A stretch of DNA of 15,828 nt from a virus. Taxonomy: Duplodnaviria > Heunggongvirae > Uroviricota > Caudoviricetes. The position numbers and the translations under genes are program-made. Shown piece by piece: positions 1,462 through 15,828 of the stretch. How positions within the stretch are numbered: the stretch's first letter is position 1; each line of letters begins with the position of its first letter. Under the pieces are notes generated by a model, which had not been told where the DNA came from, searched no databases, and saw only the letters and a program-made list of their open reading frames with translations. The DNA is taken from the IMG/VR virus record IMGVR_UViG_2700989170_000009; one strand, written 5' to 3'.

Positions 1462-1577
1462 ATATGTCCTTTTACCACTACATCAAGTCATTGATTCGAT
1501 CAAACAATTTTCATTGAAAAAGTGCCAAAAATCGCAAATTGACTACACCATTAACTACACCGTTCGGTGCACTGTAT

Positions 1578-1594
1578 GAAACAACGTGGAACAA
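1578..1594 (+). promoter_or_regulatory. Two GAACAA-type hexamers (GAAACAA-cgtg-GAACAA) near the left end of the island; related to the arrays at 9185-9210 and 14507-14552
   Basis: Direct reading: gaaacaacgtggaacaa, sharing about 17 nt with 9184-9200 (tgaacaacgtggaacaa). Confidence 0.3.
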
Positions 1595-1972
1595 ATAGAC
1601 ACAAGAAATATACAGGCGGGTAATCTTTCCAGGGGGAAGCGCACCAATTCATGAGGGGCGTTAATGTCGATATGGGGATCCCCATAACGGGGCTACCGGA
1701 TTTTTTTTCCGGTTAACCTTTAATCAGGCTGGTGGGTTTTACATACCCTTGATCACCGTAATGATGATCCAGATGTGCACCTTTTCCACCAATGGCGGAA
1801 AAGCTCCAACCGTAACGATGATCGCTATGGTTGCCTCGATGGTCTGCGTGGTCATTATGACCGTTCAGCCAGTGACCTTAATCAGAATTTTTCGCTAAAA
1901 AATGACGTTGGCCACGTCATCCGGAAAGCACAAAATCACGTCGATTTTTAATGAACGGTTAAACCGTCTTTT

Positions 1973-2008
1973 TGTCACGGTGTGTCACTGGTTGTCACTC
2001 TCCGTCAC
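1973..2008 (+). promoter_or_regulatory. Four 10-bp-phased (T/C)GTCAC hexamers; candidate integrase arm-type or regulator binding array near the left junction
   Basis: TGTCAC at 1973-1978, 1983-1988, 1993-1998 and CGTCAC at 2003-2008, exactly 10 bp apart, in non-coding DNA between phoQ and the last island gene. Confidence 0.4.
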
Positions 2009-2257
2009 GATTGAGGTGGTGGTCATTCTGCCCGACCGCGCATCTTTGCGCTATCGGGAATATCAAACAGTTACCTCGCCGACTTCCTCAAATTGAGGTT
2101 TCCGAAAATATCAGAGCGGGTTAGCGATTAAGCTGACGAGTAATTAAACTGCGAAAATTTCGTAGTTTCTGAATATATTCCGGCCTGCTGGTTAACAGTC
2201 CTCAGATGTGAGGGATGTAGCCAGCGCAATTTTGCGCTTTGCTTTAATCTCAGTGAG

Positions 2258-2539
2258 TTACCGCCGTAACCGCTCCGGCTTCTTCCAGTGGTACGTGATT
2301 TTCTCCTTCTCCCGATACAGTTCAACGCGGCGATTGTAGGCCAGCATTTCCAGAACGCGGATCCGTATGTCGCGCATATCCGCATCATTAAGCTGGATAC
2401 CATCACGGCGCATCACCTCAGCAACAACACGCGCATAATTTTCGGCTGTCACGCTGTCCGGCTGCGTGGTCTGTTCGTCAGCCTGCTGGCTGATTCCAGA
2501 GACGCGGCGGATTAATCGCAGTATTTCGGCTTCTGTCAT
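2258..2539 (-). CDS. Hypothetical protein (93 aa), last gene of the packaging operon, immediately downstream of TerL
   Basis: ATG at 2539-2537 preceded by GAGGT 7 nt upstream; starts 13 nt after the TerL stop; hydrophilic, Arg-rich C-terminus. No family recognised. Confidence 0.5.
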   Translation of the reverse strand: MTEAEILRLIRRVSGISQQADEQTTQPDSVTAENYARVVAEVMRRDGIQLNDADMRDIRIRVLEMLAYNRRVELYREKEKITYHWKKPERLRR

Positions 2540-2552
2540 GCTGCTGACCTCA

Positions 2553-14035: not shown

Positions 14036-14224
14036 TTAATGAACTGCCTTGCAGCTATCCTTCCAGGCCAGAACCTCGGATAAAGACCAGCCAACGGAAC
14101 GACCGCCAAGTTTACGACGTGATGGGAATTGTCCGGCCTTTTCCAGGCGGTAGCGGCATGAGCGGCTAAGGCCTGTTAGCTTTTCGCATTCTTTTTCACG
14201 TATAAACCGATCAGTGCTTAACAC
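14036..14224 (-). CDS. alpA: AlpA-family (Xis-like, MerR-type HTH) regulator
   Basis: 62 aa with LTGLSRSCRYRLEKAGQFPSRRKLGGRSVGWSLSEVLAW, the AlpA signature. GTG start at 14224-14222 with AGGGGG upstream; same orientation as int. Confidence 0.75.
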   Translation of the reverse strand: MLSTDRFIREKECEKLTGLSRSCRYRLEKAGQFPSRRKLGGRSVGWSLSEVLAWKDSCKAVH

Positions 14225-14277
14225 TATTGCCCCCTTTCGTTTCTTAAAGAGTTATTTCGTGTTCTATTGCGTTGGGA

Positions 14278-14293
14278 TGTGTCTGATTGTGTC
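14278..14293 (+). promoter_or_regulatory. Two TGTGTC hexamers 10 bp apart, 54-69 bp upstream of alpA; candidate operator
   Basis: ga-TGTGTC-tgat-TGTGTC-agg. The same motif family occurs at 13293-13325 in the RHH / icd divergent region (tgtgtt, tgtgtg, tgtgtcac). Confidence 0.35.
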
Positions 14294-14506
14294 AGGATGA
14301 TTCAGAGTTGGCAAATGTTGAGGCCGTATGGTTTACAGAAAGAGGAATAATCAGGATAAAATCCTTTAAATTCATGTTAATACAAAGGCATAAAATATTG
14401 TTTCATGCCTTTTTTCTCGCTATTTAAAGAGTGATTCGCTAGTGTATAAAAAATCAGTAACACATTAAAAATCAGCTACTTATAAATCTGTACACTTTTT
14501 CACCTC

Positions 14507-14552
14507 TTGTTCGTAGTTGTTCCGCATTGTTGCTCATTGTTGCACGTTGTAT
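14507..14552 (+). promoter_or_regulatory. Five 10-bp-phased TTGTT(C/G) hexamers between int and alpA
   Basis: TTGTTC 14507, TTGTTC 14517, TTGTTG 14527, TTGTTG 14537, TTGTAT 14547; reverse complement of the GAACAA repeats at 9185-9210 and 1578-1594. Confidence 0.4.
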
Positions 14553-14598
14553 CTGTTCGCATATCCAGTATGCGCATACTGAAAAAACACGAAAAAAA

Positions 14599-15828
14599 TT
14601 ATTTTCTTCTGGCTACTGGTAGCGTGGTTACGTTTTCATGTGTTCCCGCCAGTATCCCTAACCGCTCCGTCCACATATCCAGCGCATTGCGTTTAGCATC
14701 CAGATAACGGGAATGATTATAAACTCGCTGCATTCCTGGCATCTGGTGGCCTGTAAGCTGCTCCACGACGTGAGGATCCACGCCTAAATCGTTCAGCATC
14801 GTTGTAAAGGTGCGCCGGATGTCATGTAGTGACCAGTGAGGGTGATTTAGCCTCCTGTGCGCTAATCTGCCGTACTGCGACACGCTTGTTTCCTGTTTCA
14901 CTTCCCCCAGCAATAAGCCCGTGTGCCTGTTCTGCTCCACCAGCTGCGTGACGAACGGCAGTATTGCTTCCGGTATGGGCCGGAATATTGCCACCTTCGT
15001 TTTGCTGTGTTCTTTCGGCACGGTCCAGAGCATTTCGGTAAAATCCCACTCGCTGATCTCCGATAACCTCAGTTCTACCGTCCGGCATCCGAACACAATC
15101 AGGAGGCGGATTAACGCGATGTAGTAGGGGGAGAATATTTTTTTGTCCAGTGCCTGCAATAATTCGCCCAGTTCTTTGGTGCTTAAGACACGCTCGCTTA
15201 TATCCGGTTTTTTCCCAACGTCCGCCACACTCATATCATCAAGAACGTTGCTGATTGCATAGCGCCGCCTCCGGCAGAACTTAAGCGCCTGTTTGCACGT
15301 CTGTAGCAAGAATCCGGCAGTAACAGGCGTTCGCTTTGCCACCTGGTCAAAACAGGCCAGCCAGTGCCGTAGCTCGCATTTATCCAGCGGCATAGCACCA
15401 ATGTGCTGTATTACGTGATTATTAAGGCGCTTTTTCAGGGCGGCATAATCCACGCGGTTTTCCTTTGCGTACGACTCAAGCCAGTAGGTGAGCGCATCGC
15501 CAACCGTTACCGGCTTTAACGCTTCCTGTACGGTGTAATTAAGCTCATGACGTGGATTTTTCCCCTCTGCCAGCCATGCGCGACACTGGGCGGCTTTTTC
15601 CCTGGCTGATTTCAGGCTCAGATCAGGATAATTTCCCAGCTTAATGCGTTCCGGTGGTGCCCCCCTTCCCGTTCCGGCCCTGTAAGTGAAATACCAGGTT
15701 AAAAGGCCACTGGTTGAATGCCTGACGCTCAGGTTTCCACCGTCATTAAGAAAGGCTGTTTTTTGGGCGGGTGTGCCGTTGATTTTCCTCAGCTGTGTAT
15801 CGCTCAGTTTGTTAAGTGCTCTGCTCAT
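14599..15828 (-). CDS. int: Tyrosine recombinase / integrase, P4-type
   Basis: 409 aa. N-terminal arm-binding-like region (LSDTQLRK...LNDGGNLSV...YPDLSLKSAREKA), catalytic-domain motifs HDIRRTF and GHQ...RVYNHSRY (catalytic Tyr) near the C-terminus. ATG lies at the last three bases of the window. Confidence 0.9.
   Translation of the reverse strand: MSRALNKLSDTQLRKINGTPAQKTAFLNDGGNLSVRHSTSGLLTWYFTYRAGTGRGAPPERIKLGNYPDLSLKSAREKAAQCRAWLAEGKNPRHELNYTVQEALKPVTVGDALTYWLESYAKENRVDYAALKKRLNNHVIQHIGAMPLDKCELRHWLACFDQVAKRTPVTAGFLLQTCKQALKFCRRRRYAISNVLDDMSVADVGKKPDISERVLSTKELGELLQALDKKIFSPYYIALIRLLIVFGCRTVELRLSEISEWDFTEMLWTVPKEHSKTKVAIFRPIPEAILPFVTQLVEQNRHTGLLLGEVKQETSVSQYGRLAHRRLNHPHWSLHDIRRTFTTMLNDLGVDPHVVEQLTGHQMPGMQRVYNHSRYLDAKRNALDMWTERLGILAGTHENVTTLPVARRK

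Follow-up and report, generated by a model that had tools for sequence, protein, structure and literature searches.

A phoQ-linked island of the EcCIEDL933 lineage of phage-inducible chromosomal islands (capsid-forming type) with a nonsense mutation in its capsid gene

The IMG/VR virus record IMGVR_UViG_2700989170_000009, assigned to the Caudoviricetes, comprises a 15,828-nt stretch of DNA (hereafter the window) that opens with an intact chromosomal phoQ gene (1-1461, plus strand, 486 amino acids, also annotated in RM6927, K-12 and EDL933) and continues into a minus-strand island of approximately 14.5 kb between its attachment (att) cores in window numbering, devoid of tail genes. The original prediction, made from the letters alone, described this island as a capsid-forming phage-inducible chromosomal island (cf-PICI) that builds its own small capsids. 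It is concluded here with high confidence that the island is a cf-PICI of the lineage of EcCIEDL933, the prototype of the family, at the 3' end of phoQ, and that the copy in the window is degenerating and most likely makes no capsids of its own. By sequence comparison the island is already known, as it belongs to a characterised family and to the prototype's own lineage and has a sister allele at the same site.

The boundaries of the island were determined by comparison with the empty site of K-12 and with occupied sites in relatives. Window positions 1-1469 align with the K-12 phoQ region at 99.7% nucleotide identity and the alignment ends at 1469; together with the direct repeats, this places the chromosome/island junction at 1469/1470 and thus the island directly downstream of phoQ, as had been proposed. 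The left junction and att site, which the original prediction had left open, can now be assigned to the 10-mer AAATATGTCC at 1460-1469 (plus strand), which overlaps the phoQ stop codon TAA. The same 10-mer is found on both flanks of the island in RM6927 and in EDL933, whereas the K-12 empty site reads AAATATGCCC. The suggestion to look past the integrase gene (int) for the other att copy was borne out in the loci L004, L007, L008 and L010, where a second AAATATGTCC is found past the int start codon, at a distance of 174 nt, and leads directly into K-12-like sequence and roxA; in RM6927, the K-12 alignment picks up again 172 nt past int on the far side of a related island. From these comparisons, the island extends approximately 174 nt past the window end, which coincides with the int start codon. 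The K-12 gene order given in the prediction (phoQ followed by roxA, also named ycfD) is correct, roxA starting 75 bp after phoQ in K-12; the window has no roxA ORF (open reading frame), and in the relatives roxA lies beyond int. In RM6927, EDL933 and eight loci encoding an identical integrase (L003-L010), int is followed by roxA (after approximately 250 bp), pepT and potAB; tail or lysis genes just outside the window, which would have turned the element into an ordinary prophage, are therefore excluded. A junction probe showed that 587 of 5,426 complete E. coli genomes (approximately 11%) carry the same phoQ-island junction, the remaining 4,800+ matching up to the att core only. No tRNA was found in a scan of the window, and the island is thus not tRNA-targeting. 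A literature search for phoQ together with PICI returned nothing relevant, and the att site is apparently unnamed in searchable texts.

A longer repeat was also considered as the att site. A 36-nt repeat (window 1541-1576), whose copies at the ends of the RM6927 island are 92% identical and which recurs in all relatives, was rejected in this role as the K-12 empty-site alignment puts the junction at the 10-mer on the phoQ stop codon. Both copies of the 36-mer fall within the island, and an arm-type integrase site is the more likely explanation. It forms part of a segment of approximately 60 nt (tandem ACTACACC units, then TGAAACAAnnTGGAACAA) that is directly repeated inside both island ends. 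In the window, the putative arm-type binding region spans 1541-1600 (plus strand) and consists of two tandem ACTACACC units followed by TGAAACAAcgTGGAACAA; the second copy of the segment lies beyond the window, and in L004, L007, L008 and L010 it is found within 24-100 nt upstream of the start ATG of int. These segments are probably arm-type integrase binding sites.

The half of the island next to its integrase end is of PICI type. At the window end, int (14599-15828, minus strand) encodes a P4-type tyrosine integrase of 409 amino acids with Pfam matches to Arm-DNA-bind_3 (5e-18) and Phage_integrase (1e-16); in the assembly collection, 12,435 blocks contain an entry for precisely this protein. 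It is followed by alpA (14036-14224, minus strand; Phage_AlpA 5e-18), the predicted island activator, and, further along, by a gene for a D5-type primase-helicase of 582 amino acids (10314-12062, minus strand; D5_N 1e-13, DUF5906 and Pox_D5 in Pfam), which shares 90.8% identity with its RM6927 counterpart. A putative iteron-type replication origin (10069-10303, no strand assigned), immediately 3' of this gene, contains 10 copies of GGTAGAYAG in both orientations. With up to one mismatch allowed, the motif occurs 13 times in the window, 10 of these within 10073-10300, as compared to a chance expectation of 3.1 for the whole window, and none of 200 shuffles reached 13. Other PICIs likewise have their origin 3' of the replicase gene, and this position suggests that the cluster functions as the replication origin.

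The other half of the island encodes the head and packaging functions, all on the minus strand. The gene for an HK97-fold major capsid protein (7813-8970; Pfam Phage_capsid and PDB 9GYI) is interrupted by a TGA codon and therefore appears as two ORF fragments at 8146-9018 and 7816-8142 (Phage_capsid 4e-29 and 1e-23, respectively). An HK97-family prohead protease of the S78 type is encoded at 7143-7773 (phrog_80, 7e-56), its relatives being Peptidase_S78 proteins of 190 amino acids, and an intact portal protein of 403 amino acids at 5930-7141 (Phage_portal 8e-88; 6e-38 against PDB portals of HK97-type phages). The head closure or head-tail adaptor gene (5536-5933) matches phrog_25 (Hc1) at 4e-22 over its N-terminal 84 amino acids and corresponds to a PF05521 Phage_HCP protein of 112 amino acids in relatives. 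It is followed by genes for a gp6-like head-tail connector (5243-5539; Phage_connect_1 1e-11), an HNH endonuclease as packaging accessory (4803-5243; HNH 1.8e-8), a 60-amino-acid ORF (4637-4819; phrog_3173 7.5e-37; annotated in RM6927 and EDL933), a small terminase (TerS) of the P27 family (4198 to approximately 4554; Terminase_4 2e-23) and an intact large terminase (TerL) of 553 amino acids (2553-4214; TerL_ATPase 1e-25, TerL_nuclease 7e-51). The visible terS ORF (4198-4509) accounts for 103 amino acids, as compared to 118 in relatives. A conserved ORF of 93 amino acids (2258-2539; phrog_1561 1.5e-55), 93.5% identical to its EDL933 homologue, lies after terL.

The reading of three of these genes is limited by runs of N at 4553-4595, 5607-5723 and 7235-7324, which cover, respectively, the terS start together with the spacer between HNH and terS, a central stretch of the adaptor gene and the 3' end of the protease gene. 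Their lengths (43, 117 and 90 nt) differ from those of the corresponding sequence in close relatives (approximately 99, 63 and 38 nt), the run in the adaptor gene also being put at about 59 nt longer than the real sequence. In addition, the 5-16 bases that adjoin each run on its left are unlike those of every relative, so that the source looks to have been gapped or masked with arbitrary run lengths. In view of these discrepant lengths, frames were interpreted outside the runs only.

The class of the element was assessed using the description of cf-PICIs by Alqurainy et al. (bioRxiv 10.1101/2022.09.08.507074) and the cfPICI model of SatelliteFinder, and all 11 cf-PICI core components are present. 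The island has an integrase and an AlpA-type regulator at one end, its own primase with an adjacent origin, genes homologous to those for a major capsid protein, a prohead protease and a portal, a head-tail adaptor (with its middle under Ns) and connector, and its own HNH, TerS and TerL. Its size of approximately 14.5 kb, with an att site of its own (attB being the same as for the EDL933 element), falls within the expected range of approximately 10-15 kb. Pfam and PHROGs scans of 40 ORFs gave no match to tail, baseplate, fibre, holin or endolysin proteins, in keeping with the absence of 'forbidden' tail, holin and lysis genes from such elements. The gene content and the missing tail and lysis functions listed in the original prediction were thus recovered by profile searches, and its HK97-type assignment of the head proteins agrees with the families matched. 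A classical PICI, in which portal, adaptor and connector are absent according to the SatelliteFinder PICI model, does not fit, as all three are present. No match to Sid, Psu or Delta was obtained in the Pfam and PHROG scans, and with its own capsid genes the island shares only the integrase type and AlpA with P4-like satellites. Nor were tail, lysis or immunity modules of an ordinary HK97-like prophage found between the mapped ends. The sole departure concerns function rather than descent: a functionally competent cf-PICI would have all its morphogenesis genes intact, and here the capsid gene is broken by the TGA at codon 276. The island is therefore filed as a degenerate cf-PICI family member by descent.

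The closest experimentally characterised element is that of E. coli O157:H7 EDL933, which is built alike and also occupies the interval from roxA to phoQ. A distance of 15,461 bp separates its att cores, in agreement with the published sizes of EcCIEDL933, 15.4 kb (Alqurainy et al., bioRxiv 10.1101/2022.09.08.507074) and 15.5 kbp (He et al., bioRxiv 10.1101/2025.02.11.637232), so that the EDL933 copy matches EcCIEDL933. The two islands have the phoQ/roxA att site, the 10-bp core and the gene order in common, and their packaging modules are 96-98% identical at the nucleotide level. At the amino acid level, identity to EDL933 is 96-100% for all nine head and packaging proteins; taken singly, it is 100% for the integrase, 98.4% for AlpA, 98-99% for the capsid, 97.3% for the protease (over 149 amino acids), 97.8% for the portal, 96.4% for the adaptor, 96.9% for the connector, 99.3% for HNH, 100% for TerS (over the 103 visible amino acids) and 98.7% for TerL. 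The main divergence is in the replication genes, EcCIEDL933 encoding a DUF927 replicase of 710 amino acids whereas the window encodes the 582-amino-acid D5_N/DUF5906 protein, with 53% identity over 225 amino acids only. EcCIEDL933 also has intact ssb and perC genes where the window has a 53-amino-acid fusion remnant, with a different 101-amino-acid ORF nearby; in addition, the window lacks a cassette with a 74-amino-acid ORF, the central part of the 248-codon ORF downstream of alpA (orf248) has diverged, the capsid gene carries the premature stop and the island is approximately 0.9 kb shorter. Apart from that stop, the comparison indicates that the difference from the prototype is confined to the replication/accessory module in the middle of the island, the accessory genes being mosaic. 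Still closer are the intact sister alleles L006 (GCA_013468155.1) and L007 (GCA_013468035.1), which share the primase, accessory genes and att site and are 99.2-99.8% identical at the nucleotide level over a shared 11 kb, but in which codon 276 of the capsid gene reads TGG and the gene encodes 385 amino acids.

The in-frame TGA in the capsid gene, which the earlier reader had overlooked, lies at 8143-8145 in the context GTC TGA GTG. The same codons read GTC TGG GTG in EDL933 and L007, with Trp at this position, and PDB 9GYI, the T=4 capsid of EcCIEDL933 at 3.24 Å (He et al., bioRxiv 10.1101/2025.02.11.637232), also has W at 276. On this comparison, capsid codon 276 is changed from TGG to TGA by a G-to-A change (W276*). 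When the stop is repaired, the predicted protein is identical to 9GYI at 380 of 385 residues (98.7%; E = 2.5e-253). The stop removes the last 110 of the 385 capsid residues, which form part of the mature shell protein, and, as the two halves cover positions 1-166 and 169-278 of the 280-position Pfam Phage_capsid profile, it cuts the HK97 fold. In L004, L010 and L013-L019 the same allele is called as separate genes of 275 and 109 amino acids, and 3,556 blocks of the assembly collection contain the truncated product. When a 30-mer across the TGA was searched for, a single species-representative genome, that of Shigella flexneri SFBU1023, matched it exactly; over window positions 7815-15451 this genome shows 100% identity, except for an extra 318-bp cassette. 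The TGA allele was further found in the independent assemblies CP182556.1, CP026799.1, CP026810.1 and CP034931.1, as well as in WACK01000005.1, AFHB01000013.1, AFHD01000018.1 and an ENA metagenome scaffold. The recurrence of an identical TGA in many Shigella flexneri-type and independent assemblies shows that the allele is inherited and does not stem from a sequencing error. In EcCIEDL933, a point mutation in each gene of the packaging module abolished transfer while replication remained normal, with the exception of gene 1792, mutation of which severely reduced transfer (10.1101/2022.09.08.507074). By gene order, the 60-amino-acid ORF between the HNH and terS genes is probably the counterpart of gene 1792, with the numbering counted from the capsid as gene 1786. 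Given these mutant phenotypes, the W276* copy is most likely unable to build its own capsids and, by analogy with the prototype, is probably defective for capsid formation. The claim that the island builds its own small capsids thus holds for the family and the prototype but probably no longer for this copy.

The mechanism proposed for the island follows steps shown for the prototype, and its extension to the window copy is based on the near-identity of the parts. EcCIEDL933 is induced by the helper phages HK106 and HK446 through AlpA; its capsid, protease, portal, connector, HNH and terminase mutants replicate without being transferred, and the helper is needed for its tail genes only (10.1101/2022.09.08.507074). 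Tail-less T=4 capsids of EcCIEDL933 are released and are able to join tails of phages of other species (10.1101/2025.02.11.637232). For the island in the window, the P4-type integrase would have inserted the element at the 3' end of phoQ, with the att core overlapping the stop codon and roxA on the far side, and a helper phage would turn on alpA. The island would then be excised and replicate from the iteron origin by means of its own primase-helicase. In an intact copy, the late operon would give rise to a T=4 HK97-fold procapsid made from capsid, protease and portal proteins; TerS and TerL, together with HNH, would package the cos genome of approximately 15 kb; and adaptor and gp6-like connector would complete a head that joins a siphovirus tail supplied by a phage. 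The W276* copy would be expected to move only with capsid from an intact relative or by generalised transduction.

Several points weigh against reading the window copy as a degenerate cf-PICI of the EcCIEDL933 lineage. Apart from the capsid gene, those head and packaging ORFs that can be read in the window are undamaged, which suggests that the inactivation of the capsid gene is recent or that something keeps those genes. Low-level readthrough of UGA by tRNA-Trp would restore Trp, so that 'defective' may mean strongly reduced rather than zero. Induction, excision, replication and packaging of this copy are taken over from the prototype by analogy, and, the replication module being unlike that of the prototype, helper and replication behaviour may differ. 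The terS start, the adaptor middle and the protease 3' end are hidden by the N runs. Separately, relaxed selection after the loss of the capsid gene was looked for in the codon changes of the head genes: 2 synonymous and 6 non-synonymous changes (tiny counts) fall on the window-specific branch, an excess that is matched on the branch of the intact L007 (1 and 4), and L007 and EDL933 differ by 69 synonymous and 24 non-synonymous changes.

It is improbable, although the best surviving alternative, that the island is a still-working cf-PICI in which the UGA at codon 276 is read by near-cognate tRNA-Trp or in which the two capsid fragments complement each other. Misreading of UGA inserts Trp, the very residue of the lost TGG codon, and a GTG comes immediately after the TGA; all other visible morphogenesis ORFs are intact and the allele persists in thousands of assemblies. 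However, a T=4 shell consists of 240 subunits less one penton, so that the yield would fall drastically if only a few percent of ribosomes read through, the GTG has no Shine-Dalgarno-like sequence ahead of it, and a break inside the HK97 fold (between Pfam positions 166 and 169) makes it unlikely that separately expressed parts would fold. Clonal inheritance in Shigella explains the persistence of the allele equally well. A related suggestion, to which only a slim chance is given, is that the island with the nonsense allele, its remaining head and packaging genes being intact, has been retained in the S. flexneri lineage, either because readthrough of UGA as Trp gives small, regulated amounts of capsid and of transfer or as a domesticated satellite in which the truncated capsid (delta domain and N-terminal half), portal and terminase would act as an anti-phage module against HK97-like phages.

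Far less credible is an origin from an ordinary HK97-like prophage, of which the island would be what was left after deletion of the tail and lysis modules. It is true that the genes for head and packaging belong to phage families, and the broken capsid gene, the ssb-perC fusion and the deleted cassette could be seen as ongoing decay. Yet the same compact architecture and att ends, with roxA after int, recur in EDL933, RM6927 and L003-L010, the same left junction is found in the 587 E. coli genomes mentioned above, the regulatory and replication half (AlpA, primase-helicase, iterons) is of PICI type, and the prototype has been experimentally shown to be a tail-stealing satellite. Only three records of the phage collection match the island, each at <80% identity and with at most 14% coverage, which also agrees with the published distinctness of the cf-PICI family from phages (10.1101/2022.09.08.507074). 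That the TGA and the other oddities are assembly or sequencing artefacts in an element that is really intact can be dismissed as next to impossible since, for all the three N runs of anomalous length and their diverged adjacent bases, the identical TGA allele occurs in independent complete genomes and drafts.

As a degenerate cf-PICI, the island can be placed among related systems. The enterobacterial cf-PICIs EcCIGN02175 and KpCIDSM30104 likewise have their own T=4-type HK97 capsid, package with HNH, TerS and TerL and use tails supplied by phages, but by their descriptions differ in tail types and att sites. The tail specificity of cf-PICIs is determined by adaptor and connector (He et al., bioRxiv 10.1101/2025.02.11.637232). 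Classical PICIs of Gram-negative bacteria such as EcCICFT073 and EcCIED1a resemble the island in their int-alpA-primase left half, iteron origin, induction through AlpA and size (approximately 10-15 kb), whereas they lack capsid, portal, adaptor, connector and TerL genes and redirect helper capsids and terminase. HK97 and its relatives, including the helpers HK106 and HK446, share with the island an HK97-fold capsid with an N-terminal scaffold (delta) domain, an S78 protease, a portal, a gp6-type connector and HNH-assisted cos packaging; in contrast, the island is without tail, lysis, immunity and lysogeny-switch genes, and the prototype EcCIEDL933 forms a T=4 instead of a T=7 capsid, with no capsid crosslink reported (10.1101/2025.02.11.637232). 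A 16.5-kb record deposited as an 'induced prophage', 'Escherichia phage vB_KppS-Ant' (LR881103.1, H35), is 77% identical to the island in the terminase region and, by its size, may be a cf-PICI deposited as a phage.

As cf-PICIs were described in 2022-2023, tail piracy and the capsid structure followed in 2025 and thousands of these elements have been catalogued, the island matters little as a discovery. Its value lies in annotation, with the att core and boundaries now fixed for the phoQ/roxA cf-PICI site, which is occupied in approximately 11% of complete E. coli genomes, and with a widespread Shigella flexneri-type allele recognised as carrying a capsid nonsense mutation. Probably immobile, this allele will nevertheless be scored as a complete ('Type A') cf-PICI by satellite catalogues based on marker genes. 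The allele also provides a natural knockout for the rate at which a satellite decays once trapped in a host-restricted lineage.

The remaining features of the island are accessory. Downstream of alpA, orf248 (13232-13978, minus strand) is of doubtful coding status. It has no Pfam or PHROG match, and its codon-usage score is -0.17, as compared to +0.05 to +0.31 for most established island genes. The frame is still open in the diverged EDL933 allele (247 amino acids, 67% amino acid identity), and mismatches between the two are spread evenly over codon positions (46:55:62), with no third-position bias. The ORF could represent a fast-evolving protein, or a regulatory or RNA region miscalled as a gene. 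Next to it, at 12059-13235 on the minus strand, lies a group of small regulatory and accessory ORFs supported by PHROG matches and by RM6927 and EDL933 annotation, namely DUF4222 (12059-12358), orf77, orf66, orf87 and an Icd-like ORF (13023-13325), with a divergent YlcI/YnfO-like ORF on the plus strand (approximately 13041-13235). The ORFs orf87 and orf66 (12667-13075, minus strand) overlap in different frames and match phrog_2512 at positions 1-76 and 63-126, respectively, so that they could be a frameshifted or mosaic small gene.

Between the putative origin and the capsid gene, two small accessory ORFs of 101 and 92 amino acids (9445-10025, minus strand; phrog_27268 5e-69 and phrog_1231 3e-51) are followed by the 53-amino-acid ORF at 9274-9435 (minus strand). 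Pairwise alignments to the SSB and PerC proteins of EDL933 show that in the latter residues 1-25 of the island SSB are fused in frame to approximately 29 C-terminal residues of a PerC-family regulator, its Pfam match to PerC covering profile positions 50-77 only. On these alignments the ORF is what a deletion has left of an ssb-perC pair, which is intact in EDL933 and RM6927. Adjacent to it, the 23-nt hairpin AAAAAGCCGGATTGCTCCGGCTG is present as a single copy (9230-9252, no strand assigned), as compared to two copies in S. flexneri SFBU1023, L004, L006 and L010, where they surround the 318-bp cassette with the 74-amino-acid ORF (the cassette region lying at 16599-16940 in L004 and at 6222-6563 in L012). 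The cassette is also missing from L007 and L014, and looks like it was lost or gained by recombination between the identical terminator-like hairpins. On the potAB side of the EDL933 locus (L011 1-14565), a lambdoid prophage with a frameshifted portal gene and a truncated tape-measure gene was observed, which is unrelated to the island.

The left end of the island, from attL to the last conserved ORF (1470-2257, approximately 790 bp), shows neither a convincing ORF nor any convincing RNA family, promoter or terminator, the promoter/terminator scan of this end remaining at chance level. Rfam gave no matches for the whole window at the gathering threshold and, at E<=1, only chance-level matches for 1400-2600 and 12500-14700 (17-24 bits, against thresholds of 50-100), so that none of its RNA families accounts for the ORF-poor left end or the orf248 region. 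Within the left end, positions 1470-1866 are kept in EDL933 (96%) and 1867-2205 are variable among alleles, and four GTCAC motifs occur in a run at approximately 1973-2009.

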